From positions 1 to 17,241 of the forward strand of contig JASIAM010000264.1 in NCBI GenBank assembly GCA_030041985.1: a DNA stretch of 17,241 nucleotides, in the 5' to 3' direction. The stretch comes from Bryobacteraceae bacterium. Lineage in GTDB: Bacteria > Acidobacteriota > Terriglobia > Bryobacterales > Bryobacteraceae. Made by a program: the position numbers and the translations under genes. Within the stretch, counting starts at the first letter, position 1. The number at the start of each line of letters is the position of its first letter. Below the pieces are notes generated by a model. The model worked only from the letters and a program-made list of their open reading frames with translations, made no database searches and had not been told where the DNA came from. Of the stretch, positions 1-17,241 are shown piece after piece.

Positions 1-89
1 GGAAGGGCCCGCAGCGCGGTAAAAACGTGGAACGACGGGGTGTTGCCTTCGAACTGGCCCTGACTTCCTTGACTCGTCGTGCGGATCGG

Positions 90-755
90 TCAGGTTTCCT
101 TCTTCACAAATATCTGTGGCAGCAACTCTGGACGGTGGGTCAGCATGGTCGTCAACACGACGGAGGTCAATACGCCCTCTGCAACAGCCAAGGGCAGCTG
201 CATCGGCGCATAACCCATAAAGAAGATCACCCACTGCTTCAGCAGCGGCACATGGCCGTGCAGGCTCAAGGCCAACTCGAATGCGGCCACCAGGTAGGTC
301 ACCAAATCACCGACAAACCCGGCCACACCGGCCGCAAGCCACACCGGACACTCGATCGCACGCAGTATTTTCCAAAACACATAGCCCGACAGCCCGCCGC
401 AAATGCCCATGGAGAATGTATTGGCGCCGATGGTGGTTATTCCACCATGACCAAAGAAAATAGCCTGGAAAAACAAGACAATGGTGGAGATTACCGCGGT
501 GGCAAACGGGCCGATTAGAATCGCCGCCAACGCCGTGCCGCAGGGATGCGAACAGGATCCTGTGACAGGCACAGGTAGGTGCATGGCCGAGATCACAAAA
601 ACCGCGACACCCATCATGGCCAGAAACGGCTTGTACGACAGGTTTTCGCGGACTCGCCGCTTGATTTCGAAGATACCGGGCACCACAAACGCGACGGTGG
701 CTGCGTACCAACCTGCACATGCCTCTGCAGTTAGGATGCCGTCTTCGATATGCAT
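90..755 (-). CDS. cbiM: CbiM/NikM-like cobalt/nickel transporter substrate-capture membrane component
   Basis: Complete 221-aa ORF with stop at 90-92. The N-terminus MHIEDGIL matches the Met1-His2 metal-ligand N-terminal motif characteristic of CbiM/NikM. Strongly hydrophobic, multi-TM composition. Partner genes (cbiN/Q/O) would lie left of the window edge. Confidence 0.7.
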   Translation of the reverse strand: MHIEDGILTAEACAGWYAATVAFVVPGIFEIKRRVRENLSYKPFLAMMGVAVFVISAMHLPVPVTGSCSHPCGTALAAILIGPFATAVISTIVLFFQAIFFGHGGITTIGANTFSMGICGGLSGYVFWKILRAIECPVWLAAGVAGFVGDLVTYLVAAFELALSLHGHVPLLKQWVIFFMGYAPMQLPLAVAEGVLTSVVLTTMLTHRPELLPQIFVKKET

Positions 756-1061
756 TTAATCTCTCTCCTTTTCATTTGGCACGAGATGCGCCATTTTCCC
801 AAATGCTGCGACTTTTGCGTTTGACTTGATTGACATTCGGCTCGAAGCCGCCACAAAGGTGATTTGCTCCGGCTGAGAAATAGATACGAACCCCTGCCAA
901 CGTGGGCTCGCGGAACAGACAAACGCGGAAATTCATTGGAACGGAGCAACAAGTCTCCCTGCATTCACTGGATGAAACGGCTCATTCGGGCAGCAACTGG
1001 CCCTAGCATCCCGATTTTACATCTGAACACCTAACCGCCATAGGCCAAAGGGAGAATAGAG

Positions 1062-1085
1062 CGGTCACATGACGGTCACTGACCG
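1062..1085. promoter_or_regulatory. Overlapping GGTCA/TGACC inverted-repeat array (candidate operator)
   Basis: Sequence cGGTCAcaTGACGGTCAcTGACCg. It contains GGTCA-ca-TGAC and a perfect GGTCA-c-TGACC palindrome. It lies in the divergent cbiM / SPFH-ATPase intergenic region. Confidence 0.35.
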
Positions 1086-1170
1086 GCATGTAACCTATGA
1101 CAACCCAAACGAACTGCTCCACTTACGTATAAACGAACGTCGTGTCCAGACATCCCGTACTCCAGAGATT

Positions 1171-1179
1171 GTGCTAGAA
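1171..1179 (+). promoter_or_regulatory. Candidate extended -10 element (TGcTAGAAT)
   Basis: TGn-TAGAAT is ~205 nt upstream of the 1385 start codon in an AT-richer patch. There is no good -35. Confidence 0.2.
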
Positions 1180-1384
1180 TTTCGGCGATGGACATTTCGC
1201 CCTACGGTACCTTAGATGCGGGGGCGATTGACGCTCATCCATCACCGATTTAACTCAGCGGAGGCCGGTTCTGAATCTGCGTAAGACAGCCGCAGGCTTG
1301 GGTATTCCAAGCCGTCAGCTGCTCCTCCACTGGGGCATCGAGAGCGGGTAATAATCGAGGGCGTTTGTCCCTGGAGCACGATGT

Positions 1385-2497
1385 ATGTTTACCGATCAGA
1401 ATAATACCGACTTCCCCAACGAGGAGGAGCCGACCTTCCGGAAAGGGCTGCGCATCGGCGTAGCGGCCCTCGTTTTGGCTGCGGCGGTCGCTGCTGCTTG
1501 CATCGTAATGGTGCCGGCAGGTCAGGCTGAAGTCATTACGCGTTTCGGTAATCCCATTCGCGTCATTACGGAGCCGGGACTGGCATGGAAATGGCCGGCA
1601 CCGGTGGAAAGCGCGATTCCGATCGACTTACGTCTTCTTACCACGGCCACCGGGTTAGAGGATGTCGGCACGCGCGACGGTTTACGGGTTCTCGTGCAGG
1701 CCTATGTGGCTTGGCAGGTGCCGAGTAACCCTCAAGAGATCCGGCAGTTCCTGCGATCCGTGCGGAATCAGCCGAACGAGGCCGCCCGGCAGTTGCGCAG
1801 CTACGTCAATGCCGATCTGCACGTCATCTCGAGTAATTTTAACCTCGCCGATCTCGTGAATGTAGATCCGCAGAAGGTGCGTCTGAATGCCTTCGAGGAC
1901 CAGGTGCGTGCGAGGATCGCTCCCCGAATGCAGCAGGTGTACGGGATCGCTGTTCGGCAGATTGGGATCGAGCGGATGACATTGCCGGACGAAACGCTGG
2001 CGGCCACCGTGGCGCGTATGAAAGCCGATCGGGAAACCGTTGCCGCACAGCTAACGGCAGAGGGCCTTGAGAAAGCCGCTGCCATTCGCGCTGATGCCGA
2101 AAAAGAAGCGCGCGAAGTGGTGGCCGAGGCAAGCGAGAAAGCAGCGCGTACGGAGGCGGACGCTCAGCAGGCGGCGGCTCGCACCTACCAGCGCGCGTAT
2201 CAGAGTGACCCGAATCTCTACGAAACGCTGCGCTCGCTGGATACGATCAATCAGATCGTCAGCCACAGCACAAACCTTATTATGCGTACTGATGCGGCCC
2301 CATTCCGAATGCTGGTCGACGGGCCGCCGGGCGTAAAGAACGCCACTGCCAACGCCGCGTCTGTTGCCCAGCCGGCGTCCCCCGCGGCGAACTCGGCTAA
2401 TCCAACGGAGACGCCGGCTCCTGCAAAGGCTTCCCAAAAGCCGCCAGTTCCGAAGAAAAAAGACGCGAGTATCCCGGAGGTCGCCGGAAGGCAATGA
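1385..2497 (+). CDS. HflC-like SPFH/band-7 domain membrane protein
   Basis: 370 aa with one N-terminal TM helix (GLRIGVAALVLAAAVAAACIV). SPFH core begins VPAGQAEVITRFGNP...EPGLAWKWP. C-terminal region YGIAVRQIGIERMTLPDETLAATVARMKADRETVA...YQSDPNLYETLRSLDT aligns by eye with the HflC coiled-coil and C-terminal motifs. Stop overlaps the next start (ATGA at 2494-2497). Confidence 0.8.
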   Translation: MFTDQNNTDFPNEEEPTFRKGLRIGVAALVLAAAVAAACIVMVPAGQAEVITRFGNPIRVITEPGLAWKWPAPVESAIPIDLRLLTTATGLEDVGTRDGLRVLVQAYVAWQVPSNPQEIRQFLRSVRNQPNEAARQLRSYVNADLHVISSNFNLADLVNVDPQKVRLNAFEDQVRARIAPRMQQVYGIAVRQIGIERMTLPDETLAATVARMKADRETVAAQLTAEGLEKAAAIRADAEKEAREVVAEASEKAARTEADAQQAAARTYQRAYQSDPNLYETLRSLDTINQIVSHSTNLIMRTDAAPFRMLVDGPPGVKNATANAASVAQPASPAANSANPTETPAPAKASQKPPVPKKKDASIPEVAGRQ

Positions 2498-3606
2498 TAG
2501 GCGCGCCCGATTATTCGCCGGCCGGCGTGGACGAAGAGCCTCGCCGTGTTCTGGTTGGGCCGCAGCCCGGTCCGATCGCACAGTCGGTCGTGCTTGGTTT
2601 TCGGGCCTTGTATGTGGCCACAGTGCTGCTTGCGCTCTTCTGGGTCACAAGCGGTGTGCGCGAAATCGCATCCGACAGCCAAGTTGTCGTGCGCCGGTTC
2701 GGTCGCATCGTGCGTGCGCAGCAGACTGGTCTGCTCGTGGCGTGGCCGCGTCCTATCGAGCAGGTCCAGGTCTTGCCCGGACCGCAGCGGCAATTGACTC
2801 AAGACGTATCCGTGCTGCTCGCGCCCAGCGGAAAGTACCAGGAGGTGGTGTGGGGCGTCAACTCGAACACCAGAGCGTCGCGTACAGCCGCACCTCAGCA
2901 TGCCGAAGCATACCTGACAGGCGACGGCAACGTCGTACTCATCACGGCAAGCCTGATCTACCGGATCAACGATCCGATCGCGTACGCGCTCGAAGAGGAG
3001 CACGTCGGCCCCGCGCTCGATCGGCTTTTCCGTGCCACCGCAGTGCGGATCGCGGCCGGTAGAAACCTCAATGATTTTCTGGTCGTGCAGACCAATGCCG
3101 ATCAATCTCGCAATGGGCAAGCTCCCATCGCCCGGCGTAGTGAAGTCCGTGAGTCATCGCTTAGAGAGATAAACGATCGCCTACACGCTCTCGAGGCCGC
3201 CGGCGCCGGGCTGGGAGTGGAGATTGAGCAGATTAACCTGACGCCGTCATTGGCGCCCGCTGCCAAGGCCGCCTTTGATCAGGTGATTGTGGCGGATCAG
3301 ACTGCCGAGCGCGGCATGGCCAATGCGCGCACCGATGCCGAACGCCGCCGCCAGCAGGCCAACACCGAGGCCGAACAATTGGTCAGCGCCGCGGAGGCGA
3401 CAGCGAAGGAGACCGTAACCAAAGCTTCGGTCGATACGGCAAGCATCCTGGCACTCGTGCACGACGAGAGGACGTTTCAGAGCCGGGACAGTTTGTTATT
3501 GCGGGAATACCGTGCTCGAGTGGCGAGTATAATGAGCACCGGGCGAGTAACGTTAGTCGACCCAAAGAGCGGCGCGCGCGTCGTATTACCAGGAAAACAA
3601 CCATGA
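2494..3606 (+). CDS. HflK-like SPFH/band-7 domain membrane protein
   Basis: 370 aa with an N-terminal TM helix (ALYVATVLLALFWV). SPFH core is VVVRRFGRIVRAQQTGLLVAWPRPIEQV. HflK-like segments: YLTGDGNVVLITASLIYRINDPIAYAL and GVEIEQINLTPSLAPAAKAAFDQVIVADQTAERGMANARTDAERRRQQANTEAEQ. Translationally coupled on both sides (ATGA overlaps at 2494 and 3603). Confidence 0.8.
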   Translation: MIGAPDYSPAGVDEEPRRVLVGPQPGPIAQSVVLGFRALYVATVLLALFWVTSGVREIASDSQVVVRRFGRIVRAQQTGLLVAWPRPIEQVQVLPGPQRQLTQDVSVLLAPSGKYQEVVWGVNSNTRASRTAAPQHAEAYLTGDGNVVLITASLIYRINDPIAYALEEEHVGPALDRLFRATAVRIAAGRNLNDFLVVQTNADQSRNGQAPIARRSEVRESSLREINDRLHALEAAGAGLGVEIEQINLTPSLAPAAKAAFDQVIVADQTAERGMANARTDAERRRQQANTEAEQLVSAAEATAKETVTKASVDTASILALVHDERTFQSRDSLLLREYRARVASIMSTGRVTLVDPKSGARVVLPGKQP

Positions 3607-3651
3607 GTGCCACACCAGTTACCAGGGAAACAACCATGAGTGCCACAGCCA
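3586..3651 (+). repeat. 33-bp tandem direct duplication spanning the ATPase RBS/start and the upstream-gene stop
   Basis: TTACCAGGAAAACAACCATGAGTGCCACA (3586-3614) is repeated as TTACCAGGGAAACAACCATGAGTGCCACA (3619-3647). There is 1 mismatch in 29 nt, and the period of 33 nt is in frame. Confidence 0.85.
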
Positions 3652-5666
3652 GAATCGATCCGTCCTGCGCTCCTGGCGGTGGGACCTGTTTCGCGACGGC
3701 TGATGCCGTCACTTCGACTCTCCAGATTGACGCGACTCTCGGGACCGACCGATCAGGGCAGTTGCTGAATCGGGCCGAGCGTTTTGTGCTCGGTCTCCGA
3801 CTCACGCTGGCGCTCGCGGCGCTGTGTCTGGTCGCGGTTGCCAGTGGCGTGTATTTCTTCTTGCCGGCTGAGCGCGGGGTCGCCGATCTGGTGGCCGGTG
3901 TAGGCGCTGCTCTGGTTGCCGTTCCGGTATTCGTCGAGGCTTGGGCAAGCTTGAAGCATCCAAGCCTCGACGGCATTAGCGAGCGGTTGGTAGCTTTGGC
4001 GCTCATCGCCGCTTGGGCTACCGGCGATCTCATGACTGCTGCCATCCTGCCGATCATCATGACGATCGGCCATATATTGGAAGAGCGAAGCATGCTGGGT
4101 TCGCATGAGGCCATTAGCGCCCTGACCCGCTTGACCGAGGCTGATGTCCGGCGGCGACGGCCTGGTGGCGGCGTAGAAGTGGTGTCCGGCACGAATCTGC
4201 GGGTCGGCGACCTTATTGAATTGCGTGCCGGAGAGCGCGTGCCGGCCGACGGAATTGTGCGTCAGGGTGCCTCGACTCTTGACCTCGCCTCCTTAACTGG
4301 TGAATCGGTGCCGGTCGAAGTTGGCGAGGGTAACGAGGCACCGGCTGGCGCGATGAATCTGGATGGTCTGCTGCTATTGGAAATCATCCGTACCGGTGAA
4401 GAGAGCACCGTCGGACGGATCATTACTTTGATGCGGGACGCCGAGAGTTCCAAGCCACCCCTCACGCGGATGCTTGACAAATACGCTGGTCAGTACATGG
4501 CACTGGTTCTGCTCGTGGCCGGGGGCACATGGCTGATCAGCGGAAGCACGCCGGCGATGCTCGCCGTGCTCGTCGCGTCCTGCCCGTGCGCCCTAGTGCT
4601 GGCTGCGCCGGCAACCGCCGTCGCCGCTATCGCCGTGGCCGCGCGCCACGGCATCCTGATCAAGGGATCTGGCTTCCTGGAAAACCTGGCCGACATTTCC
4701 TCGGTGATCTTCGACAAAACCGGCACCCTGACCACGGGCAATCTGCATCTGGCGCGCGTCGAGCCGACCGAGGGTGCCGATCCAACTGTGCTCAAGCGTC
4801 TTGGTGCAAGTCTCGGTGCCGCAAGCAACCATCCGCTCAGTCGCGCCGCCGCCGCTGCGGTACCGAAAGAGGAGCGCCTGGGCCTCGAAGACGCTCGCGA
4901 GCTGGGCGGCTTTGGCGTTACCGGCATGTACGAGGGAGAAATCGTCGTGATGGGGCGCGCAGACTGGTTCGAGCGTCTCGGCATCGCGGTGCCCGCGCCG
5001 CCGGCGCACGTCGGGCCGATTGCCGGCGTCAGCCGGAACGGAAAGTTCTTAGGCTGGCTACTGTTTTACGATCAGTTGCGCAGCAGCGCTTCCGAAGCGG
5101 TGCAGGACCTGAAAGGGCTCGGCATCGAGCACATGGTGCTGTTGACCGGAGACCGGGCTGCAGTGGCCCATGAGGTGGCAGCCGAAATCGGTGTGGACGA
5201 AGTCTGGGCCGAGATGCTACCCGAGCAGAAGATGGATCGCGTTATGCGCGAGATCAAATCCGGCCACCGGCCCATGGTGGTCGGGGATGGCATCAACGAC
5301 ACGTTGGCGCTTCGCGCCGGGGCCGTCGGTGTGGCGATGGGCACGCAAGGATCTGATATCGCCTTGGCGTCAGCCGACCTCGCGTTGATGACCAACGATC
5401 TGCGGCGCCTCGGCACCTGCATTCGGCTCAGCCGCCGCTGCCGCCGGACGATCGCCGTCAACATCGTGATGGGCCTGGGATTCACGTTTGGCCTCGTGGC
5501 GCTGGCGGGCTTCAACGTTCTGGGCGCCTCAGCGCCGATCATCGCGGCGCTCCTGCACAACGTGAGTACGTTCCTGGGAATTGGCAACTCCGGTCGCTTG
5601 CTGCTCTTCGACGAGACGGATGCGGTTGCAGCAGCGACGGTCTCACAGACGCCAGTGACGACGTGA
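3603..5666 (+). CDS. P1B-type heavy-metal-translocating P-type ATPase, short form lacking an N-terminal HMA domain
   Basis: 687 aa. CPC motif in SCPCALVLAAP (P1B signature). Phosphorylation motif DKTGTLT. HP motif SNHPLS. Hinge motif GDGINDTLAL. Followed by MGTQGSDIALASADLALMTNDL. No GMxCxxC metal-binding domain at the N-terminus. An alternative in-frame start at 3636 is created by the tandem duplication. Confidence 0.9.
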   Translation: MSATPVTRETTMSATARIDPSCAPGGGTCFATADAVTSTLQIDATLGTDRSGQLLNRAERFVLGLRLTLALAALCLVAVASGVYFFLPAERGVADLVAGVGAALVAVPVFVEAWASLKHPSLDGISERLVALALIAAWATGDLMTAAILPIIMTIGHILEERSMLGSHEAISALTRLTEADVRRRRPGGGVEVVSGTNLRVGDLIELRAGERVPADGIVRQGASTLDLASLTGESVPVEVGEGNEAPAGAMNLDGLLLLEIIRTGEESTVGRIITLMRDAESSKPPLTRMLDKYAGQYMALVLLVAGGTWLISGSTPAMLAVLVASCPCALVLAAPATAVAAIAVAARHGILIKGSGFLENLADISSVIFDKTGTLTTGNLHLARVEPTEGADPTVLKRLGASLGAASNHPLSRAAAAAVPKEERLGLEDARELGGFGVTGMYEGEIVVMGRADWFERLGIAVPAPPAHVGPIAGVSRNGKFLGWLLFYDQLRSSASEAVQDLKGLGIEHMVLLTGDRAAVAHEVAAEIGVDEVWAEMLPEQKMDRVMREIKSGHRPMVVGDGINDTLALRAGAVGVAMGTQGSDIALASADLALMTNDLRRLGTCIRLSRRCRRTIAVNIVMGLGFTFGLVALAGFNVLGASAPIIAALLHNVSTFLGIGNSGRLLLFDETDAVAAATVSQTPVTT

Positions 5667-5795
5667 TCTTTGATCCGGGGTGGTTGAAGGAAGACCTTCT
5701 CGGCCAAGCGTGTTCGGTACTCGAAGCGAAATTGATCAAGCACCGGACATTGGGCACGACGCAGGCCGCTTTGGGTATACTCGGCCGACGACATC

Positions 5796-6497
5796 ATGGA
5801 TAGCATCCTCGAAGTAGGCCACCTCTCGGTGCACTTTGGCCGACGCCATGTGCTGCAGGACTTGAGCTTCAACGTCGAACGCGGAACCTCACTCGCCATT
5901 CTCGGGCCGAACGGCGCTGGCAAGACGGTTCTGTTCCGGTCGCTGATTGGTGCCACGCCCTATGACGGCACAGTACTCTGGGCCGCAGGCACGCGTATCG
6001 GCTATGTGCCTCAGAAACTGGATCTCGAACGTGACATCCCGATCACGGGACTCGATTTCTTAACGGCACGGACCGCGCTCGCGCATGGCATACGGACCGA
6101 TGTCTCGCGTGTGCTGGCGCTCGTCGGCATTCCCCCTGACGTGGCGAATCAGCCGATCGGCGTGCTCTCGGGCGGTCAGTTTCAGCGGCTGCTACTCGCC
6201 TTCGCTCTGGTCGGCGAGCCGAACGCGCTGCTGCTCGACGAGCCAACGGCGGGGGTGGACGAGCCAGGGCAGGAACAGATCAACGAGCTTGTCAGCGTTC
6301 TTCAGCAAAATCACGCGCTGACCGTCCTGTTCATCTCGCACGAGCTCACAGTGGTGAGCCGCTACGCCACCAACGTGCTCTGCCTCAGCCGTGGCGTATC
6401 GTGCTTTGGTCCGCCACGCACCATTCTCACGCCGGATCTCCTGCGTGATATGTACAGCACTGACATGCACTTCCACGTTCACGAGCACGACCGATGA
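5796..6497 (+). CDS. znuC: ZnuC/MntB-like metal ABC transporter ATP-binding protein
   Basis: 233 aa. Walker A GPNGAGKT, signature LSGGQFQRLLLAFAL, Walker B LLLDEP. His-rich C-terminal tail HFHVHEHD, typical of zinc/manganese-type ABC ATPases. Confidence 0.8.
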   Translation: MDSILEVGHLSVHFGRRHVLQDLSFNVERGTSLAILGPNGAGKTVLFRSLIGATPYDGTVLWAAGTRIGYVPQKLDLERDIPITGLDFLTARTALAHGIRTDVSRVLALVGIPPDVANQPIGVLSGGQFQRLLLAFALVGEPNALLLDEPTAGVDEPGQEQINELVSVLQQNHALTVLFISHELTVVSRYATNVLCLSRGVSCFGPPRTILTPDLLRDMYSTDMHFHVHEHDR

Positions 6498-7252
6498 CCG
6501 CTGACGCGCTGGCGCTCGCGGTGGCAATGGCCGTGGCCTCCGGCCTGATCGGCTGTTTTGCCGTGATGCGGCGGATGTCGCTCGCGGCCGACCCACTGTC
6601 GCACGTCGCGCTGCCCGGCATCGGCGTCGCCCTGGCGCTGCGGATCCATCCCATCTTCGGCGCCGTGGCGTTGCTGTTTTTCGGCGCGCTCCTGGTATGG
6701 GCCCTCGAGCAACGGACCCGAGCCGCCACCGAAACGATGATCGGGATTGTCTTCTCCGCGGCGCTGGCCGTAGGAAGCATGATGACCTCTGGCGAGAATC
6801 TGATCGAAGCGCTGTTCGGCGCCAGCGGCCCGCCCAGCACATCGGAATTGATCTTCGGCCTCGCCGGCGCATTCGCCGTAATCGTCTTCATCGTTACCCA
6901 ACGGGACAGCCTGATTGTGATGCTCGTCTCGCCGGAAGTGGCGCGCACGACTGGGATTAACGTTGGCCGGCTGAATCTGCTGTATCTTGAGGCCTTTGCA
7001 CTGACGATTGGGCTGGGGTTGCGCTACCTGGGCGTTTTGTTGATGGGGGCCCTGATTATCGTGCCCGCAGCCACCGCGAAGGGGATGGCACGCAATCTCA
7101 CGGGCATGCTCTACATGGCGGCCGGCATCGCTGTACTGGCCACCGTAGTCGGCACGTGGGCAGCGGTTTGGCTGCACCGGGCCAGCGGCCCGCTAATCGT
7201 GATGACAGCGACCGGCGTCTTCCTGCTGAGCCTTACGCGAAAACCCGCCTAA
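6494..7252 (+). CDS. znuB: ZnuB-like ABC-3 family metal transporter permease
   Basis: 252 aa, very hydrophobic multi-TM. ATGA overlap with the znuC stop (6494-6497). Size and composition fit the ZnuB/MntC/TroC permease family. Confidence 0.75.
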   Translation: MTADALALAVAMAVASGLIGCFAVMRRMSLAADPLSHVALPGIGVALALRIHPIFGAVALLFFGALLVWALEQRTRAATETMIGIVFSAALAVGSMMTSGENLIEALFGASGPPSTSELIFGLAGAFAVIVFIVTQRDSLIVMLVSPEVARTTGINVGRLNLLYLEAFALTIGLGLRYLGVLLMGALIIVPAATAKGMARNLTGMLYMAAGIAVLATVVGTWAAVWLHRASGPLIVMTATGVFLLSLTRKPA

Positions 7253-7269
7253 TTGATCGTCAGCTAGGT

Positions 7270-7310
7270 TCTATTCGATATCCCTTCCGCATACCGAGGG
7301 ATTGTGGTAG
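7270..7310 (+). terminator. Candidate stem-loop terminator after znuB
   Basis: ATCCCT (7270-7275) pairs with AGGGAT (7287-7292) around an 11-nt loop. It is followed by TGTGGTAGCATTTTAT, 18 nt after the znuB stop. Confidence 0.3.
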
Positions 7311-7384
7311 CATTTTATAGCTAGATATTTCGCCCCGATAAGCGAATACTAAGTCATTGGTATTGACGAGGTCTCCCGTAGTTC

Positions 7385-9370
7385 ATGTGGCTAATATTCC
7401 TAATCGTTTTTACGTGGTTCTGCGTACTCATCTATGACGTATTTTCGATAGGTGATCAACCGCCCGAATCGAAAGAATTTGTATTTCCCCGCGCCCATCG
7501 CCTGACGCGTGGACTGACATTGCTGTACGCCAGTGCGGTGATAGCAGTTGTGGTGTGGCTGACCCTCGGATCCCTGGGAATGAGCGCGCCGCGCGAGTGG
7601 GTTGAGGGTGGCTGGGGGGCCATCGCGTTGCCGACGCTCCTTGTGGCGCTCACTGGCTCGGTCGCCACACTAGCCCTGACCGGCGCGCGATTCCGGTACG
7701 CATCGGGTGGGGAGAGTCAGAATACCGAGACGCAACCGGGGCCGTTGCTCAAGTGGATGGTGAATCCCGGATTCGCCGCCCGGCAGGGACAAGCCATCAT
7801 TGTGACGACTGGTGCGGTGCTCGTATGGATCGCGGAGCGGTGGCTGTGGCCGGTGGAGACATCCCCAAACGCAGAAGTGGCGGCCAACGTCGGGATCGCC
7901 GTCGGTGCTGCGCTCGCGCTCGCCTTCGCATCGCTCATGGCGGAGCGCCTTGTGAACGCCTTCCCTGAGCCTCAGTTACCCGAGGCCCCGACGATTCGGC
8001 GTCTGTTGCTTTTTACAACTCTGATGCTCGTTGCGGGGGCATGTTTGGAAATTGTACATGGTGCGGGTGTCACGTGGCTTCGCTGGCTCGTCTGCGCCTT
8101 GGCTTGCCTCCCGGGGTTGATCGTGTTCGAGCTCATCCTGCGTGCGCTGGGCCGGCTCTTCCTCCCAGCACCGCTACCCGCCGCCGCCACCGCCGTCACG
8201 GATAGCTTGGTCGCTGCCTTGGTCACCAGGAGACCTCGAGCGCCTGGCACCATCCTTCGCACCCATCTCGGATTGGATTTTTCAAGGAGTTGGGCCCTTG
8301 CGTTCTTGAGCAAGGCGCTCCTACCGGCCATCTTCGGGACCGGTTTGCTGTGTTGGGGATTGAGCGGCGTGAAGCTGATCGATCTGGGGCAGCGCGACAT
8401 TTACGAACGATTTGGCGCTCCGGTCGCCGTGCTCGGACCCGGCCTCCACATGGTGCTGCCGTGGCCGATCGGACGGTTGCGTCCCGTCGAATACGGCACC
8501 ATTCACTCCGTGGCGATCGGCGTCGACCAGGCGGAACCGGACAAAGCGATGTCGGCCGATGCGGAGGCCCCGGCCCCGCTCGCCCTGAATCGACTCTGGG
8601 AAAGCTCACATCCGGGGCAGGCCTACTATTTAGTGCCGAGCGCGGGTATTGGTTCCGAAAGCGTCCAGGAAGTCGCCACTGAGATCAGTGTGCTGTACCG
8701 CGTCGGCTTGAGCGACGAGGCAGCTTTGAACTCGGTGTACAGGGTCGCCGATCCCGAATCGCTGATCCGAGACGAGGCTGGCCGCCTAGTACTTCGTTTT
8801 TTTAACTCGCGGACGCTCGAGGCGGTGATCGGGGCGGACCGCGAGAACATGGCGGGCGCGTTGCGCGATCAACTGGCGGCTGATATCGATTCGCATCAGG
8901 CGGGTATCGAAATCGTCTCTGTGCTCATCGAGGAAATTCATCCTCCGGCTGGTGCGGCCGCGGCGTACCACGCGGTTCAGGCGGCGCAGATCAATTCGAC
9001 GGCAAGTATCTTCGAAGAACAGGCACGGGCCGAACTCAAGGCCGGCACCGCGCAGCAGGAGGCACACCAGATGACGACCGCTGCGGATGCGAAAGCTGAC
9101 GAGACACGGCGTGTCGCCGATGCCGCAGCGTATCGCTTCGATGCGGATCGGCGCGCAGCGGCCGCCGGCGGGAAGGCCTTCGTGCTGGAGCGCTTCTACA
9201 GCAATCTGGATGCGGCCCTGTCGAAGGTTCCGGTGACGATCATCGATCACCGAATCAACTCGGCAGACGGCCCTATTCTCGATCTGCGTGAGGCAGCCGG
9301 AAGCATCGGATCTTCTAAGCCTGCACCCGTTCCGCCCTTGTTGCCCCCGGGGATTATGGACAAGCACTAG
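7385..9370 (+). CDS. Polytopic membrane domain fused to a C-terminal HflK-like SPFH/band-7 domain
   Basis: 661 aa. The N-terminal ~300 residues contain many hydrophobic helices. The SPFH core starts VKLIDLGQRDIYERFGAPVAVLGPGLHMVLPWPIGRLRPVEY. HflK-like motifs IEIVSVLIEEIHPPAGAAAAYHAVQAAQ and RFYSNLDAALSKVPVTIID follow. The first ~70 nt are unusually AT-rich, so the true start may be downstream. Confidence 0.65.
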   Translation: MWLIFLIVFTWFCVLIYDVFSIGDQPPESKEFVFPRAHRLTRGLTLLYASAVIAVVVWLTLGSLGMSAPREWVEGGWGAIALPTLLVALTGSVATLALTGARFRYASGGESQNTETQPGPLLKWMVNPGFAARQGQAIIVTTGAVLVWIAERWLWPVETSPNAEVAANVGIAVGAALALAFASLMAERLVNAFPEPQLPEAPTIRRLLLFTTLMLVAGACLEIVHGAGVTWLRWLVCALACLPGLIVFELILRALGRLFLPAPLPAAATAVTDSLVAALVTRRPRAPGTILRTHLGLDFSRSWALAFLSKALLPAIFGTGLLCWGLSGVKLIDLGQRDIYERFGAPVAVLGPGLHMVLPWPIGRLRPVEYGTIHSVAIGVDQAEPDKAMSADAEAPAPLALNRLWESSHPGQAYYLVPSAGIGSESVQEVATEISVLYRVGLSDEAALNSVYRVADPESLIRDEAGRLVLRFFNSRTLEAVIGADRENMAGALRDQLAADIDSHQAGIEIVSVLIEEIHPPAGAAAAYHAVQAAQINSTASIFEEQARAELKAGTAQQEAHQMTTAADAKADETRRVADAAAYRFDADRRAAAAGGKAFVLERFYSNLDAALSKVPVTIIDHRINSADGPILDLREAAGSIGSSKPAPVPPLLPPGIMDKH

Positions 9371-9382
9371 CCAAGGCGCCTT

Positions 9383-9425
9383 TTGTTGGAGCAGTTCCAG
9401 CGGCTGCTGCTCGCCTTTGCGCTCT
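9383..9425 (+). pseudogene. Possible relic of a znuC-like ABC signature motif
   Basis: The frame starting right after the stop of the 7385-9370 gene encodes ...LLEQFQRLLLAFAL..., matching GQFQRLLLAFAL of the znuC at 5796-6497. By eye, 28 of 33 nt are identical to 6177-6209, with differences mostly at third codon positions. There is no extended ORF. Confidence 0.3.
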
Positions 9426-9652
9426 CGTGGTGCCGCGTGCGGTCGGATAGTAACCGGTCACACCACGCTTGCGTTGCAGGTTGTGTGGATGGAAATCGAT
9501 ACCGTTTGACACAATCCTGTTACGGCTGATACGTCCACTATCATAAACTCTGCCGTTGTCCGGCGAAACCCGCCGAGGGTTCCCAAGCGATCGATGGCGA
9601 GCGGCGGTCACGCACTGCCGGAATAGGTTACTAACCGCAACTCAACATGGAG

Positions 9653-9683
9653 AGCGATGCCTGTTTAGCGATGCCGTGTTAGC
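9653..9683 (+). repeat. 14-bp tandem direct repeats upstream of the 4-TM gene pair
   Basis: AGCGATGCCTGTTT / AGCGATGCCGTGTT / AGC, 37-67 nt upstream of the ATG at 9720. An 11-bp palindrome GGTTAcTAACC sits at 9626-9636. Confidence 0.3.
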
Positions 9684-9719
9684 TTCACCAGAGTAGTAAG
9701 AAAGCGAACACGGAGGGGC

Positions 9720-10235
9720 ATGCACATTCTCAATTGGATTGAACAGACCTCATTCAGTACCTGGGTGCGGGAATCTCCTTCGCTTTTCGCATACCCTACA
9801 ATTCTCTTCTTTCACACCGTGGGCCTGGCATTTCTGGTCGGTCCAAGCATTGCAATTGTGGCAAGGGTGCTCGGGCTGGCTCCGAAACTACCGTTACGGC
9901 CTTTTGAGAAGTTCTATCGCATCATGTGGTTCGGATTTTGGATCAATGTGGTTTCCGGCATTGTGCTCCTCGCCGCGGACGCTACCACCAAGCTGATCAA
10001 CTGGGATTTCTACGTAAAGCTGGGGTTCATCTCAATTGCCGTAGTGGTTCTCAAACGGCTACGAAAACGCCTATTTCATAACCCACAATTGAAGGGGGAT
10101 TGGTCCATTCCGGAGAACGCGAAACCTCTGGGAATCGCGTTGCTCCTATGTTGGGCGGGCGCCATTGCGGCGGGAAGGTTTATGGCCTACCTCGGCCCTG
10201 TGTCCGGCGCGCCCGGACTAAACAATCGATTCTAA
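9720..10235 (+). CDS. Hypothetical 4-TM membrane protein (paralog A)
   Basis: 171 aa. Strong SD GGAGGGG 3-9 nt upstream of the ATG. Four predicted TM helices, with a conserved His in TM1 (FFHTVGLAFLVG). Paralogous to the next ORF. Confidence 0.6.
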   Translation: MHILNWIEQTSFSTWVRESPSLFAYPTILFFHTVGLAFLVGPSIAIVARVLGLAPKLPLRPFEKFYRIMWFGFWINVVSGIVLLAADATTKLINWDFYVKLGFISIAVVVLKRLRKRLFHNPQLKGDWSIPENAKPLGIALLLCWAGAIAAGRFMAYLGPVSGAPGLNNRF

Positions 10236-10265
10236 AATCAGCAATTCCCGAAACAAGGAGCGCGA

Positions 10266-10766
10266 ATGTATTTTGTCGATTTATTTTCCGATTTGCTCAA
10301 CCGAATCGGGCTTCACGGAGTCGTGGCCCACTATGCCTGGATTGTTCCGACGTGCCAAACCATTCATTTCTTTGGACTAGCCCTCCTGATGGGCTTCGTC
10401 GCCCTTTTCGACCTGCGCATGCTGGGGTTCGGAAAGGGACTCTCGATGTTGCATTTGAACCGTTTTCTTCCCTTGGCTGCCATTGGATTCGCCATAAACA
10501 TGATTACCGGCACAATCCTGTATGCGGGAGACCCCTCGATGTTCGGCCACAACGTTGCGTTCGGATTCAAGATGCTCTTCATTTTGCTGGCCGGGATCAA
10601 TGTGTTGGTGTTTTACATTAGCGGCACCGCCCGGACGGTCGAAGCTTTGGGGCCTGGGGATGACGCGCCGCTTGCCGCCCGGGTCATCGGAGGCACTTCG
10701 CTATTCCTGTGGGTGGGAGTCATGTTCTGGGGCCGCATGCTGCCTTTCATTGGCAATGCATTTTAG
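10266..10766 (+). CDS. Hypothetical 4-TM membrane protein (paralog B)
   Basis: 166 aa. SD AAGGAG upstream. Same helix layout as 9720-10235, with corresponding motifs (IHFFGLALLMG vs FFHTVGLAFLVG; AINMITGTILYAGD vs WINVVSGIVLLAAD). Confidence 0.6.
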   Translation: MYFVDLFSDLLNRIGLHGVVAHYAWIVPTCQTIHFFGLALLMGFVALFDLRMLGFGKGLSMLHLNRFLPLAAIGFAINMITGTILYAGDPSMFGHNVAFGFKMLFILLAGINVLVFYISGTARTVEALGPGDDAPLAARVIGGTSLFLWVGVMFWGRMLPFIGNAF

Positions 10767-10796
10767 CAGAGGAACGCCACTTTAGCTTAATTTTGC

Positions 10797-11192
10797 GTGG
10801 TTTGCGAACCCGAGATGTCAAAACACAAACTGAAAGCGTTCCGGCAAATTCTCATAGATAAGAAAGCTGAGATCGAGAATCGCTTGCGTCATCTTGAAGC
10901 AATCGCCAGCCAAACGAGCGCCGACGAACTCGACCGGATGCAATATTCGGCAGAACAGGCCGTCGCGGTTCACCACTTGAATTTCGAATCGGACACGCTC
11001 GTTGAAGTCATGGAGGCGCTGCAACGGGTCGATGAAGGGGATTTTGGCAAATGCGTTCGCTGTATGGAACAAATTAGCCGGAAACGGCTAATGGCCGTTC
11101 CTTGGACTCGTTTCTGCATCCAGTGCAGGACTTTGGGAACGTTAGAAAACTTGGGGAGGCGCCGGTCTCGCAAAGGGCCACTCCGGCATTGA
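10797..11192 (+). CDS. DksA/TraR-family C4-type zinc-finger protein
   Basis: C-terminal CVRCMEQISRKRLMAVPWTRFCIQC (CxxC-x17-CxxC), preceded by a predicted coiled-coil region. This is the DksA/TraR layout. An alternative start at the ATG at 10815 (MSKHKLKAF) is plausible. Confidence 0.65.
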   Translation: MVCEPEMSKHKLKAFRQILIDKKAEIENRLRHLEAIASQTSADELDRMQYSAEQAVAVHHLNFESDTLVEVMEALQRVDEGDFGKCVRCMEQISRKRLMAVPWTRFCIQCRTLGTLENLGRRRSRKGPLRH

Positions 11193-11432
11193 ACTCAATA
11201 AGGCGCTTACCGGCATGGCAACAAGCGTTTTGCCGCTCAGCCCAGTGAAAATTCTCAGAGACTCACAAAGCTTCTGCTAAGGGCCAGGTTGCGATTCTTC
11301 CGAACGCCCCCAAACGTTGAAGAGGCGAAAAGAGAAGCCCGCGCCCACTGGCACGATCCAGGCAGGTTCCGGGCCGGCCACGCGCGATAGTACGAGGAAA
11401 TATCCGCCCGTCAGCCTGCCGATAAAGATTGA

Positions 11433-12923
11433 TCATCGGCATAGTCCAAATTCCCAGTGAACTCTGGCCCCGAAAATTGACACCGGCCCGCGGTCACGGT
11501 TGAAAGCAGGATTCTCAACAAACTGGTAGTCCAATGTGAGATGGGTATTCCTCCAAACATTGAAATCGTAGTAAGTTTCCAGAACCCTCTCCCAGCCGTA
11601 ATTCAGCTTGCCGTCACCGTCGAGTATGTCTTCGCCACCGGCTTCGAGGAACCTTTGGTTGGCAGGCGACGCGCCGCTGAGGACGCCGCCGAGGCCGAAA
11701 GTATCCTGGGGGCGATGCCATAAGTTACCTTTGAGGCTTACACCTAGCGATGCAGTGTAATTGATATCGGTGAATGTCCACGCGTCCTGCTGGCCGTCAT
11801 TCCAGCCAAGGCGTGAAAAGACACCCACGTTTTGGCCAAGTTCCTGTTCCCAGTTTAGTCCGAAGCCGTACTTGAATTGATAGGAACGCAATGAGTCGGG
11901 GATGTCAGCGCCTGACCCCGCAGGTGCGTTGGGCCCGGGCGGATTGGCCAGCAAATATGCGGTCGCCACCCCGTAATTGACGAAGTTGGCTTGATCCAGC
12001 CACTCTAGAAACCGCACGGTCCCCGGGTGATGGTGAACGGTATAGCGGCGCTCGAATTCTGCAGCCATCGCCCATGACTTCAGAAAAGGGCCATAATGAC
12101 CCCGGGCGGGCCACATGAGATACTGGTCGTCCCCTGTGAAGCCATTCTTTACATCAGACATCTGGAAGAATGTGTAACGCAAGGCCCAGTGAGGCTGATT
12201 CAATTCAACTGCAATACCCGTACTAAACCCAACAGTATCCTGGCCATAATCGAAACTTGGGTTGGCCATGAGTCCCCAGTTCATAAATTGTGCGTGCGAA
12301 TCGCCGCCATAACTATTTTGGTCGACGATGTCCTCCGGGGTGAAGCGGCCGAGAGTAATTGTGAGCCGGCGAATGTCCTGCTTACCAGCAAGGGTAAAAC
12401 GGCCATCGGAAACTTCCTCCTGTTCACCGCCCAACCCGATGGTTTGCCGGATGAAGAGATGCGACAAAGTGCCGTTGGGAACTACGGTGCCGGCTTTAAA
12501 AGCGTCGCCATTGGGGAAATCTTCGATGCCAAATGTCTGGCTCAATCCGAACCCCTGCCACATCAACCCGTCCACGTGTGCCTCGGCGCCTGACCACAAC
12601 CGCAAGCCGGCATAGACATCGACGGTCACAGTTTGCTGGACCTGGCCCTGGCTGCTCAGGCTATTGGGGCCGGAATACTTCGCGGAAAAACCTGGGTCGC
12701 CCTGCACAACATCCGTGTTCTGAACGTAAAAGTTCCATCCAGATGAATCTTGTGCGTGTAATGGACGAGCCGAAACAAGGATGGCAATCTGGCTTACGAC
12801 AAAAAAGATAAAACGGATGCGCGTCTTTCGCGCATGGAAATCAAGCTGCACAATTCCTCCAAAATCAGCCTTCGCCGCTACCGCGGACAGTAATGTTGGA
12901 AAGCTTCGCCTGTGGACGCGCAC
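11433..12923 (-). CDS. Outer-membrane beta-barrel porin-like protein (OprB-like carbohydrate-selective porin family suspected)
   Basis: ~496 aa. Signal-peptide-like segment KTRIRFIFFVVSQIAILVSARPLHA-QD. Alternating aromatic/glycine-rich strands and a C-terminal aromatic end (RVHWEF). The annotated first codon is GTG (V translated as M), so the true start is likely an internal GTG just before the signal peptide. Confidence 0.55.
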   Translation of the reverse strand: MRVHRRSFPTLLSAVAAKADFGGIVQLDFHARKTRIRFIFFVVSQIAILVSARPLHAQDSSGWNFYVQNTDVVQGDPGFSAKYSGPNSLSSQGQVQQTVTVDVYAGLRLWSGAEAHVDGLMWQGFGLSQTFGIEDFPNGDAFKAGTVVPNGTLSHLFIRQTIGLGGEQEEVSDGRFTLAGKQDIRRLTITLGRFTPEDIVDQNSYGGDSHAQFMNWGLMANPSFDYGQDTVGFSTGIAVELNQPHWALRYTFFQMSDVKNGFTGDDQYLMWPARGHYGPFLKSWAMAAEFERRYTVHHHPGTVRFLEWLDQANFVNYGVATAYLLANPPGPNAPAGSGADIPDSLRSYQFKYGFGLNWEQELGQNVGVFSRLGWNDGQQDAWTFTDINYTASLGVSLKGNLWHRPQDTFGLGGVLSGASPANQRFLEAGGEDILDGDGKLNYGWERVLETYYDFNVWRNTHLTLDYQFVENPAFNRDRGPVSIFGARVHWEFGLCR

Positions 12924-13024
12924 AAACTCGCATCAGGAGCGCACTCGCGAAGACACAACTCCGCCGGGCGCGGCGATTAAAGGCGCACCACGGGCATTTC
13001 GATGACACGTGGACACCTCCTCGT

Positions 13025-13100
13025 AACTGGAATCTCTGGTCAAAGCTGCCGGAGATTCATGCTCCGGGAGGCGTTTCCAAGACTAAGGACACACGTGTCC
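13025..13100. promoter_or_regulatory. Two CACGTG-cored palindromic motifs upstream of the porin gene
   Basis: GACACGTGGACAC at 13025-13037 and GGACACACGTGTCC (6-bp inverted arms) at 13087-13100. They lie 100-180 nt upstream of the porin start at 12923 on the minus strand. Confidence 0.3.
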
Positions 13101-13481
13101 CCGCCATAGGAGATCCTTCGCTCGGTCGCTAAATTACGAGCGTGGATTTCCGAGAGTTAGGATCTGGGAGGGTGGTCGAAAGGAGCGGGTCTAGCTTCGT
13201 GGGGGGAGGGTGGCTCGATTGCATCTGCCGGTCTCACCAGTAGTGTCACTTCAAGCGAAAAGGGATGCCTCAAGACCACTGCGGCATCACAAAAACAATC
13301 GTGGTCATTCAGCCGGGGGTTAGTGTTAAGTTGCGATCCTGTCTGTAGTGAAGGCAGCGAAAGGCAATCGTCGAGATGAAGGGAACAGATCACAAAGTCA
13401 GCAGACGTGCAGAGGAACACTACCAGTGCAACTGCTCTAACGATTTGGAACCAACGGCTCACTGAATGCCTTCTAAGCTCT

Positions 13482-13520
13482 CTTGGCCGGAAGACTTAGA
13501 GGATACCTCTCCCGGCCAAG
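13482..13520 (-). other. Extended hairpin just downstream of the TonB-dependent receptor stop
   Basis: Perfect 9-bp inverted repeat CTTGGCCGG...CCGGCCAAG with an inner AGAGG/CCTCT stem in the loop. It begins ~23 nt past the stop. There is no U-tract, so it is not a canonical intrinsic terminator. Confidence 0.35.
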
Positions 13521-13542
13521 TACGAAAACGGGACTATATACT

Positions 13543-16500
13543 TCAAAACAGGAACTTCAAAGCAACCTGCACCAGACGGGGCGGCTGTGCATTGATCACA
13601 TAGCCGAAGTTGGCATCGAGAATCTCTCCTTGCACCGATTTGGGGCCGAAGAACTGCGCATGGTTGAAGGCGTTGAAGGCTTCGAAGCGAAACTGGAGCT
13701 GCTTCGTCTCGGTGACCTTGAAGTTACGCAGCAGGTCCAGATCGAAGTTCATCTCGCCCGGCCCGGCGAACGAACGCCGCGATGCAGTCCCGGGCTCGCC
13801 CAGCGCGTTTTGGCTGAACGCCGCGATATTGAAATACGGCTGTCCATTGCGCGGGTTGGAGTTGATTTGAAGCGGCAGACCATTATAGTCCGGCACATCA
13901 AGATAATGGTTGTTGACGCCATTGGGGCTGCTTCCCTGCAGAGAGTTGTCGGCATCGCTGTGCAGTGTCACAGGGAAACCCGTGGTGATGCGGGTGATTC
14001 CGCTAAGCTGCCAGCCGCTGGTGACTGGCCGCCAGTGGTTGGTCAAACGATAGAAAGGAAGGTTCACCGTGTAGGTGGCGACAAAGTTATGCGCGATATT
14101 GAAGGCCGAGAGAGCGCGCGTGCTGGCCAGGTCGTATGGATTGCCGGTGTCGGAGATGCTCGATGCCTGATCGATCGACTTGCTGAAGGTGTAGTTGAAA
14201 GAGAAGTTATAGTTCCTGCCCGCGTGGCGAAAGGCAGCCTGAAGGGAATTGTAGTTTGAGTTAGCGACAGTCGCATCGTAATCATCGTTTGCGTAGTCAC
14301 CGGTAACTCCAAGAGGGCCGGTGCGTGTCCCATTAATCGTCTGGCCGTTCGCCAGAAGGTACGTGTTGTTCTCAAGGCCCGGGCCGCAGGGTTGCGTGCC
14401 CTGCGCAAGAATCGACCCCGGCTGGCCATAAGGAACGCTGAGCTGCAGGCAAAGCTGTGGGTTGCCGGGATCGGCGGAATAAACGAGCAGCAGATGGTGC
14501 GCCTGCGAACCTACATAGCTGACGCTGAGCATCGTGTTCTCGGTGATCTGGCGCTGGATCGAAAGGAAGTAATTCTCATTATAAGGATACGTGTTCCATG
14601 GTTCCGGCGATGTCATGCCGGCTTGCGGAAGGAATATCCCGAATTGCTCAGGATTGGGATGGCTGGCTGTCTGATTCAACGTAGGAAACGCGAACGGATA
14701 CGGATTGCCTAGGAACGTGCCATTCCCTGCCGCTACGTACGGCTGGTCGAAGAGCGGCGGCGCCGGGCTGGTGTAGCTGAGGCCGTACGGAGGCTGTGGC
14801 TCGTCGATCGCCATAACGTTGCCCTCGATCACGGATTCGAAGATGCCGTAGCCTGCGCGAATGCTGGTTTTTCCGCCTCCGGGCGACCAGGCAACGCCGA
14901 TTCGGGGCGAAAAGCGATTCTTAGACGGCACAAGCGTGTTGGAAACTCCAGGATCGCCGGGATAGACTAGTCCCAGCGGCGCGTTCGGCCAAATGACCGA
15001 CTGCTCGCCTGGTATGTACGTGGGAATCTGGTTGAATTTTTCCGACCAGAATTCCATGTGGTCGTAGCGCACGCCGTAGTTAACCGTCAGGTTTGGTCTC
15101 AGGCGCCAGCTATCCTGCACATAAGCGCCCTCGTATCGGTGGCGTATATAGTAAGACTGCGAATCCTGCTGGTTGAAGTATTGCGGCGTGCCGATCAGGA
15201 AATCGGCGAAGTCGAGCCCGGTTTCCTGTCCCGAAAAAGTGAACGAACCGTTAAACATCGCGTCCGGCGTGACGTTCACCTGCTCATAGCTTGCTTCGAA
15301 ACCGGCTTTGAGCGAATGGTCGCCGATGACCCGGGAAAAGTTGTCGTTCGCGCTGTAGGTATTGTTCCACTGCTTCAAATTCGTTATCGGTAGCCCCATC
15401 GTGAATGCATTGAATTCGATGTTCTCGATGCCTTCGATCGCGGGGTCGAGCGGGTAAATCCCAGTCGTGCCAGCACCGGTAACAAAACCCTGCGATGCCA
15501 GGCTGGGGCCAACCCCCCCTTGAGGTTGCCCGACATTGTTGGCGTCACGCATATAGCTTAGGTGAAACTCGTTGACGGAAGTCGAGCCAATGGCCTTCGT
15601 ATGACTGAAGTTGAAGAGTTGCCCCCGGCCGAGATTGAGGGCGTTGAACCCTGGTACTGTGGCACCACCCTGGCCGGACGGATAGGGATTGTTTTGCGTG
15701 AAGTCGTCAAAGAAATAGTAGGCCGAAAACGTGCCGTAATGGTCTGTGTTCGCGTCTAAGCGAAAGCTCCCTTTGTCGTCGCGCGTAATCTGTCCTACTG
15801 CCCCGGTCGAGAATTCGTCGGAACCGACATTCGGCTGTGGGATATATTGCAGCAGGTGCTGGGCCGGTGACGACCAGGCGTACGATGGAATGACGGCATT
15901 GGGAAACACGCACAATTGTGGCGTGGTGCAACCCGGGAAGTAGTACGGCTCGCCGGCGGTAACGCCGTAGTTGAGCTTCTGCGTAAGGATATTGGCGAGG
16001 TAGGATCCGCTGACGCTGCCCGTGAGTTGGCTGGCAACGCCGCTGAGGTCCCCGGTGCGTTCCTGGACGCTGGGGACGGCGATCAGGCCGGTGTCGATTC
16101 CCTGGTTGGTGCGGGTGCCCTGGTAATCGACGAAATAGAAGATCTTATCCTTGCGAATCGGGCCGCCGACCGTGCCTCCAAACTGGTTCTGACGATAGAA
16201 GCTGCGATCCGGGGAGAAGAAGTTGCGGGCGTCGAGATCGGTATTGCGCAAGAATTCGAAGGCGCTGCCGTGAACTTCGTTCGCGCCGGATTTGGTGATC
16301 ACATTGACGATGCCGCCGCTGTAGTTCCCGAACTCGGCGTCAAAGTTATTGGTCAGAACCCGGAACTCGGCGAGCGAGTCGAGATCGGGAATAATTGTGG
16401 TTCCGCCGTTCATCAATTCTTTAACGTCCCCGCCATTGACGAGGTAGCCGTTAGCATCTTCGCGCTGGCCGCTGATCGATTGGTTACCGGCGTTCAGGCC

Positions 16501-17148: not shown

Positions 17149-17241
17149 CTCCCGAAGAGGACAATTTAAGGCGAGTAACCGGCATGTGACCGCGCCGTAA
17201 CCACAAATGTTGTTTGTTTTCAGGCACTCAGAACACGCTTG

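Follow-up and report, generated by a model that had tools for sequence, protein, structure and literature searches.

Does a bacterial SPFH protein that joins an HflK-like domain to a large membrane domain exist as a genuine gene product, and which partner would it serve? The question is raised by a stretch of 17,241 nucleotides from a Bryobacteraceae bacterium (contig JASIAM010000264.1, positions 1 to 17,241 of the forward strand; this whole stretch is called the window below), in which the gene termed here L (7385..9370) encodes such a protein. Canonical HflK/C, stomatin, flotillin and YqiK are single-anchor proteins, and among bacterial SPFH rings we know of defined partners only for HflK/C-FtsH and QmcA-YbbJ. 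In the case of L we lean towards the reading that the protein is a third, membrane-rich subunit of an SPFH assembly, formed with the products of two further SPFH genes (A and B) and dedicated to a co-encoded P1B-type heavy-metal ATPase (P) in metal limitation. The parts of L were delimited as follows (TM, transmembrane; AF2, AlphaFold2).

7385..9370, forward strand: the long SPFH gene L, 661 amino acids (aa), ATG start, with polytopic N-domain, anchor helix, SPFH domain and long helix (open reading frame list and translation)
7457..8293, forward strand: family-specific core of the N-domain, aa 25-303, six TM helices (hydropathy, AF2, invariant columns, positive-inside counts)
8294..8365, forward strand: seventh TM helix, aa 304-327, equivalent of the single HflK anchor, with C323 and W324 invariant (hydropathy, AF2)
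8378..9028, forward strand: SPFH/Band 7 domain, aa 332-548 (Pfam PF01145; profile match to the HflK chains 7vhp/7vhq at E ~1e-9; Foldseek match to HflK)
8948..9226, forward strand: long C-terminal helix, aa 522-614, about 90 residues (AF2 helices 522-595 and 597-614), counterpart of the wall-forming helix in SPFH cages

The reading frame is uninterrupted from 7385 to 9370 in the translation of the window. A preliminary description of this DNA had placed a third SPFH gene downstream of an HflC/HflK-like pair and the znuCB genes; this was confirmed, and all three peptide strings quoted there are present in the translation. The Band_7 profile (PF01145) matched aa 332-548 with an E value of 1.1e-16 and 61.8 bits against a cutoff of 23.6, which places L in the SPFH/Band 7 superfamily. 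When the AF2 model of L was compared with known structures by Foldseek, the top match was HflK (7vhq_E, E 5e-6, probability 1.0), followed by erlin, prohibitin, stomatin and flotillin, and both the SPFH fold and the long helix of the cage-forming members could be recognized. The profile alignment with HflK reaches aa 579, and a weak match to the N-terminal part of Erlin-2 spans the seventh TM helix. L departs from HflK proper in score and in anchor: its TIGR01933 hflK score (59.9 bits) lies below the equivalog cutoff of 159.4, its PRK10930 score is 19.2 versus 660, and seven or eight hydrophobic helices are found instead of a single N-terminal TM anchor.

Hydropathy and AF2 both put a polytopic domain of about 300 aa ahead of the SPFH domain in the same chain and, together with the Band_7 match, bear out the HflK-like C-terminal half and the long membrane domain that had been described. 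The family-averaged hydropathy profile contains seven hydrophobic segments in the core, and the lineage of the window has one extra segment at aa 2-24. In the AF2 model built on the family alignment, helices were predicted at 36-63, 77-111, 128-153, 169-191, 201-226, 233-257 and 304-327, with two short amphipathic helices at 275-294; the predicted local distance difference test (pLDDT) values are mostly >90 over aa 36-290, and the N-domain modelled by itself gave a predicted TM-score (pTM) of 0.78. The mean number of Lys and Arg residues, calculated over 104 sequences, was 4.1 in the N-terminal tail, 1.1 in the loop between TM1 and TM2, 5.9 between TM2 and TM3, 0.2 between TM3 and TM4, 3.1 between TM4 and TM5, 0.6 between TM5 and TM6, and 4.8 in the linker between TM6 and TM7. 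Since these values alternate from loop to loop, they fit a predicted topology with the N-terminus inside, seven TM helices and the C-terminus outside, in which the SPFH domain would be periplasmic like that of HflK.

Within the N-domain the highest conservation was observed in the predicted cytoplasmic loop 188-206, where 63% of the columns show at least 90% identity, and in the cytoplasmic linker 257-303 (45%). The corresponding value is 50% in the anchor helix and 14-30% in the remaining TM helices. The motifs PRxHRL, PGFAARQGQA, ERxxxxFPEPQLPEAP, RLFLP and HLGLDFxRSW are conserved in the cytoplasmic loops, and TM5 and TM6 carry one nearly invariant (E222) and one invariant (E249) acidic residue, respectively. 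Searches of Pfam and NCBIfam gave no match to aa 1-330, whether the single sequence was used or 23 members at E up to 1; thus the N-domain is not a common, known fusion partner of band-7 domains, a possibility that the preliminary description had named as contrary to its view. A sequence profile search of the N-domain against the PDB was empty, and Foldseek returned no significant match. The sole fold resemblance, to the cation diffusion facilitator (CDF) or SLC30 transporters (ZnT, YiiP), is weak, and assignment to that family was rejected: there is no Cation_efflux Pfam match, the HxxxD/DxxxD metal site of TM2 and TM5 is missing, and so is the CDF C-terminal domain.

The integrity of the fusion follows from its homologues. 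A search with L among 5.8 billion proteins yielded 511 matches, and the 120 matches listed are 533-757 aa long (nearly all >590 aa), share 56-88% identity and are annotated with Band_7 only. Invariant columns run across the junction of the two parts in the 104-sequence alignment (G296, L297, D298, F299, R301, W303, C323, W324, K330, I332, R337, Y340, E341, R342). A profile of the N-domain (aa 1-332) found 217 proteins among 1.84 billion representatives, 144 of them at E <=1e-10, and the best 150 of the 217 were assessed for being fused or split. Among these, the SPFH part followed downstream in all representatives of at least 550 aa (85/85), the shorter matches were contig-end fragments or had Arg/Pro-rich, frameshift-like tails, and no convincing stand-alone N-domain or other fusion partner was observed. 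By sequence comparison, then, the fusion in L is shown to be intact and conserved, and the N-domain to be exclusive to this SPFH fusion among the matches examined. It had been pointed out earlier that a frameshift could have merged a membrane protein and a normal HflK. Such an artefact, whether from a frameshift in sequencing or from loss of a stop codon, is hardly conceivable: the same contiguous reading frame occurs on many independent contigs from several sources, and the conserved junction and the uniformly fused representatives exclude a frameshift merger.

The family of L spans Acidobacteriota and Alpha-, Beta- and Gammaproteobacteria. Homologues of 610-640 aa occur in Kluyvera, Raoultella, Citrobacter, Salmonella, Pantoea, Burkholderia, Paraburkholderia and Trinickia under the name 'protease modulator HflK', and hundreds of homologues of 610-690 aa are found in cultured Burkholderia, Rhizobium and Enterobacteriaceae; the homologues checked in these three groups have six to seven hydrophobic segments ahead of the SPFH domain. 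Judged by these homologies, L is a further member of a widespread family with an over-specific HflK annotation, not an oddity of one genome. The architecture had been called unusual, and this stands insofar as it is real, conserved and unlike that of the single-anchor proteins, but as a sequence family it is neither rare nor new.

The partners of L in the window are the following.

1385..2497, forward strand: SPFH_A, HflC-like, single N-terminal TM helix, conserved module partner (Pfam, TIGR01932)
2494..3606, forward strand: SPFH_B, HflK-like, single N-terminal TM helix, 4-nt overlap with A (Pfam/NCBIfam, synteny)
3603..5666, forward strand: P, P1B-type heavy-metal P-type ATPase, 4-nt overlap with B (TIGR01525, 498 bits; synteny)
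5796..7252, forward strand: znuC-like (5796-6497) and znuB-like (6494-7252) genes between the ATPase and L, placed likewise in the related loci L005 and L006 (Pfam/NCBIfam)

Two further SPFH genes and a P1B-ATPase gene thus accompany L on the same strand of the window, in the permuted order A, B, P, znuC, znuB, L. The ATPase (3603-5666) was absent from the gene list of the preliminary description and is part of the conserved partner set. An HMA domain is lacking; the TM region carries an SCPC motif, the last TM helix contains HNVST, and cysteines occur in the N-terminal tail (SCAPGGGTC). Its closest solved structures are the P1B-4 pump sCoaT (7qbz) and ZntA (4umv).

Related loci were collected by look-ups with the exact proteins and by a scan of 185,579 species genomes (79 distinct loci), and were compared with the window proteins by tblastn and clustering of open reading frames. 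They belong to Bryobacteraceae and other Terriglobia, Steroidobacteraceae, Caulobacteraceae, Acetobacteraceae, Xanthobacteraceae and Micropepsaceae. Fifty loci extend for 6.3 kb or more downstream of L, and 47 of them have the order L, HflC-like A, HflK-like B, P1B-ATPase on one strand; 41 of the 47 passed the strict test and the other six missed the overlap thresholds of the reading frames only. The suggested tie between L and the upstream SPFH pair is upheld by these loci, in which L lies directly ahead of the pair. The permuted order A-B-P-znuC(-znuB)-L was observed in the window and in L006. In the tblastn comparison A was the best conserved protein of the module (54-84% identity), followed by the ATPase (60-88%). 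In plasmid cassettes of cultured bacteria L-A-B-P is present and nothing else is conserved:

Rhizobium tumorigenes plasmid: L of 672 aa
Klebsiella aerogenes plasmid pYD-K10_1, conjugative: L of 568-610 aa, depending on the start chosen
Burkholderia ubonensis plasmid, conjugative, flanked by the insertion sequence (IS) elements IS5, IS110 and IS66: L of 631 aa

A linkage that is nearly universal and survives plasmid transfer points to the P1B metal ATPase as the specific client of this SPFH system. Other neighbours recur without being universal. A triad of cytochrome c, peptidyl-prolyl isomerase (Rotamase_2) and HupE-UreJ_2 lies near the module in 38-42 of 81 loci (e.g. L001 6769-9779, L021, L024, L042, L043), mostly divergent from L and at times downstream of the ATPase. 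ZnuABC-like genes occur in 9-25, NicO in 11, CbiM in 10 and CbtA in 9 of the 81.

The same composition and order, by annotation an HflK-family gene, HflC, a third SPFH gene and a P-type metal ATPase, are displayed by the PA2439-PA2438-PA2437-(PA2436)-PA2435 (hmtA) operon of Pseudomonas aeruginosa, likewise in a metal-acquisition context (PMC4542158, PMC8531726, PMC9431628, PMC13086221), while in the window the order is permuted and znuCB is inserted. In the PA2434-PA2439 cluster PA2439 ('HflK family') is the first gene, PA2438 is HflC, PA2437 is 'HflC family', and PA2435 is HmtA, a P-type ATPase reported as an importer of Zn and Cu; in a znuA mutant the cluster was upregulated by factors of 5.6 to 14, and a weak Zur site was predicted (PMC4542158). 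The PA2439 promoter was shifted by purified Zur (PMC8531726). At the protein level PA2435, PA2438 and PA2439 increase under Zn depletion (PMC11761036), and the proteins of the PA2439 operon increase with the Zn chelator N-acetylcysteine (PMC9431628). A 2026 study, in which the SPFH proteins of strain PA14 were named PaFlo5-7, noted the operon, whose distribution is patchy and probably due to horizontal transfer (PMC13086221). The polytopic N-terminal domain and a mechanism are treated in none of these five papers, and a full-text literature search found no dedicated study of an SPFH protein together with a P-type ATPase. The architecture of L and its link to a metal pump are unanalysed in the literature searched, and nothing in the present results overturns current views.

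On these grounds the following arrangement may be envisaged. The products of L, A and B would together build a hetero-oligomer, a ring or cage of the HflK/C type that sits at the inner membrane on its periplasmic face, with the polytopic domains of L as the base embedded in the membrane. Through its conserved cytoplasmic face L would dock the P-type ATPase encoded alongside; in some lineages the docked protein would instead be an FtsH paralogue encoded nearby. Docking would corral, stabilise or gate the pump under metal limitation, most likely of zinc. The ring engaging the ATPase is suggested by the fusion, the predicted topology, the conservation of the cytoplasmic face and the four-gene linkage. 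The link with metal limitation comes from Zur binding and Zn-limitation induction of the same-order P. aeruginosa operon, and from the metal-uptake genes that surround the module both here (CbiM, ZnuCB and a TonB-dependent-receptor-like protein) and in the related loci (CbtA, NicO, HupE/UreJ, ZnuABC).

Several observations weigh against an ATPase-dedicated assembly of this kind, or against its tie to zinc. In one study hmtA mRNA itself was not zinc-repressed (PMC8531726), and the triple deletion of paFlo5-7 gave only subtle phenotypes, in conditions other than zinc limitation (PMC13086221). The proposed equivalence of L and PA2439 is drawn from identical gene order and annotation and not from alignment; when homologues were sought with the proteins of the window, Klebsiella and Burkholderia and in a cluster look-up, the matches listed included no Pseudomonas entry. 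Zur control is demonstrated for P. aeruginosa only. Upstream of L, no Zur-like operator or shared motif was found in the window and its relatives by 8-mer enrichment and a search for AT-rich palindromes, and the adjacency of znuCB to L in the window is only suggestive of Zur or zinc control. Finally, znuCB separates L from A-B-P in the window and locus L008 has L with no A, B or P nearby; thus strict co-transcription is not universal.

The main rival, which we judge improbable, is that L, A and B would modulate FtsH as HflK/C do. The N-domain would then recruit FtsH or present the ATPase as a substrate for proteolysis, so that the turnover of the pump, not its activity, would be controlled; the housed FtsH would be a dedicated paralogue where one is encoded nearby and the housekeeping enzyme elsewhere. 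The closest solved relatives of L are indeed HflK chains of FtsH-HflK/C complexes, and in 15 of 81 loci (Acidobacteriota, Alpha- and Gammaproteobacteria) the module has ftsH, usually with His_Phos_1 (10 loci), no more than 10 kb away, immediately upstream of L in L003 and L008. However, this makes ftsH a neighbour in a minority of the loci and it is missing from the window, the IS-flanked plasmid cassettes hold L-A-B-P without a protease, which counts against a general rule, and the scores for both TIGR models, hflK and hflC, are far below the equivalog cutoffs. The pair of His_Phos_1 and ftsH (L003 7328-9821, L008, L039, L060 and 11 others) often stands beside cbtA/cbtB and could represent a dedicated FtsH paralogue.

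Two further explanations were considered. In the first, the polytopic region would do no more than enlarge the membrane anchor and give the ring a thicker transmembrane wall, without binding a particular partner. Such an anchor would agree with the fast divergence of the first half of the N-domain, as the alignable part begins only at aa ~174 in the Rhizobium and at aa ~234 in the Klebsiella homologues, and with the insertion that remodelled the extreme N-terminus (described below) while the gene was retained. The loops contain numerous invariant Arg, Pro, Glu and Gln residues, one cytoplasmic loop is 63% conserved, and the N-domain was retained across four bacterial classes or phyla; these points are hard to reconcile with such an anchor, and we consider it distinctly less probable than the FtsH rival. 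Lower still we place the idea that metal permeates through the N-domain itself, which would be a six-helix transporter or channel resembling CDF proteins, with the SPFH part as no more than its regulator. A channel-like role had been proposed for L at the outset and finds little support, with the conservation lying on the cytoplasmic loops and the resemblance to CDF/ZnT being weak and devoid of the metal-site motifs.

Returning to an assembly of L, A and B dedicated to the ATPase, a more far-reaching form of it can be drawn, which we hold to be unlikely: the three proteins would build an SPFH vault, and polytopic L domains would stand as a palisade at its membrane rim and enclose the P1B-ATPase, so that a sealed periplasmic and membrane micro-compartment for scarce zinc would arise. 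The pump might handle zinc there by, for example, local concentration, hand-off or client metallation. If true, this would make the vault the first SPFH cage for which genetics defines a transporter as the client, and it could account for the disputed 'importer' phenotype of HmtA. Apart from this form, one ring subunit with a conserved domain of about seven helices outside all database families offers a tractable test case for the client specificity of SPFH proteins, and the module bears on the unexplained Zur-regulated PA2439-hmtA operon.

Comparison with known systems helps to place the module. The E. coli HflK/HflC-FtsH complex (PDB 7vhp, 7wi3, 9cz2) shares with L the SPFH domain, the long helix and the predicted periplasmic orientation; it gives the best match in sequence and fold, and the L gene belongs with HflC-like and HflK-like partners. 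The differences are that HflK has one TM helix and L about seven or eight, that the L module has three SPFH genes and not two, and that its conserved genomic partner is the P1B-ATPase, not hfq-hflX or FtsH. In the SPFH-NfeD pairs (QmcA-YbbJ, PDB 8z5g; stomatin PH1511-PH1510) an SPFH scaffold is likewise genetically tied to a membrane partner, and L has a weaker Foldseek match to QmcA; there, however, the partner is a separate NfeD protein, whereas the extra membrane domain of L is fused and, by the lack of a Pfam match, unrelated to NfeD. The mycobacterial PacL1-CtpC 'effluxosome' platforms represent the same concept, a P1B-ATPase co-encoded with a membrane scaffold or chaperone-like organiser (PMC9374683, PMC13043812), but PacL1, a small protein with one TM helix and a motif for metal binding, is not an SPFH protein, and that system acts in metal excess (efflux) in contrast to the zinc limitation of the Pseudomonas counterpart.

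The 5' end of L deserves separate treatment, as its first ~70 nt had been described as AT-rich and the real start suspected to be internal. The base composition is real: the GC content is 0.47 at 7200-7499 versus about 0.63 across the body of the gene. The two features concerned are these.

7384..7460, forward strand: AT-rich, lineage-specific insertion of ~77 nt; it supplies the ATG now in use (7385) and adds a hydrophobic helix to the protein, aa 1-24, MWLIFLIVFTWF... (DNA and protein alignment)
7362..7364, forward strand: vestige of the ancestral start codon, ATT here and ATG in relatives; its frame stops at TAA 7392-7394 (DNA alignment)

In the DNA alignment with four acidobacterial loci, the insertion is present in the window and L005 and absent from L003, L006 and L008; none of the 85 fetched loci contained further copies of it. 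The protein alignment displays the hydrophobic extension in the window protein (P0001) and in six relatives (P0002, P0003, P0005, P0007, P0008, P0010), while the usual N-terminus of the homologues reads MDE..S..SAQSKEY.xPRxHRL. The ATG at 7385, within the insertion, is in frame with the remainder of L, and no in-frame ATG, GTG or TTG occurs between it and the invariant PRxHRL motif (PRAHRL in the window). Since there is no such codon and the history of the insertion and the new ATG could be reconstructed from the alignments, an internal start is not supported and was rejected. The AT-rich 5' end is, as the alignments indicate, a lineage-specific remodelling of the N-terminus in which a new ATG replaced the ancestral start, and not a mis-called start.

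Just 5' of the start, at 7345-7364, a palindrome AATAC-N10-GTATT is present; at least one such match also appeared in 27 of 200 shuffles. The palindrome, which overlaps the leader motif ACTAAGTCA conserved in L003 and L008, could be an operator or a translation-initiation element. The public start sites of the family are inconsistent. For one Rhizobium cluster at 90% identity, to which Rhizobium sp. CF122 belongs, RefSeq gives 569 aa and GenBank/JGI 674 aa, a difference of about 100 codons in what looks like one gene, and the Klebsiella protein is annotated with 568 aa or with 610-615 aa. The shorter calls cut away and hide part of the N-domain, and the name 'protease modulator HflK' is over-specific for the family.

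The remaining features of the window lie outside the module; CbiM, the porin and the outer-membrane protein among them form a setting of metal and nutrient uptake.

90-755, reverse strand: CbiM (Pfam/NCBIfam)
756-1384: intergenic region between cbiM and the first SPFH gene, given as 630 bp, without an Rfam match
11433-12923, reverse strand: OprB-family porin
13543-17148, reverse strand: outer-membrane protein of 1201 aa with CarboxypepD_reg and TonB-receptor-like barrel domains

No riboswitch or other RNA was detected in the window by Rfam at E up to 0.1, and a scan of 7150-9800 for sigma-70 promoters and intrinsic terminators found none. A DksA-like protein with a GTG start is encoded at 10797-11192; its four-cysteine zinc finger (CVRC...CIQC) is intact, thus it is not of the zinc-independent DksA2 type. 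Directly 3' of L two similar small polytopic membrane proteins are encoded at 9720-10235 (171 aa) and 10266-10766 (166 aa), one of them with a weak DUF6644 match. The GC content of these genes (9720-10766) is about 0.52 versus 0.63 in the module, and weak relatives of the 166-aa protein are found near L in L008, L037 and L042.

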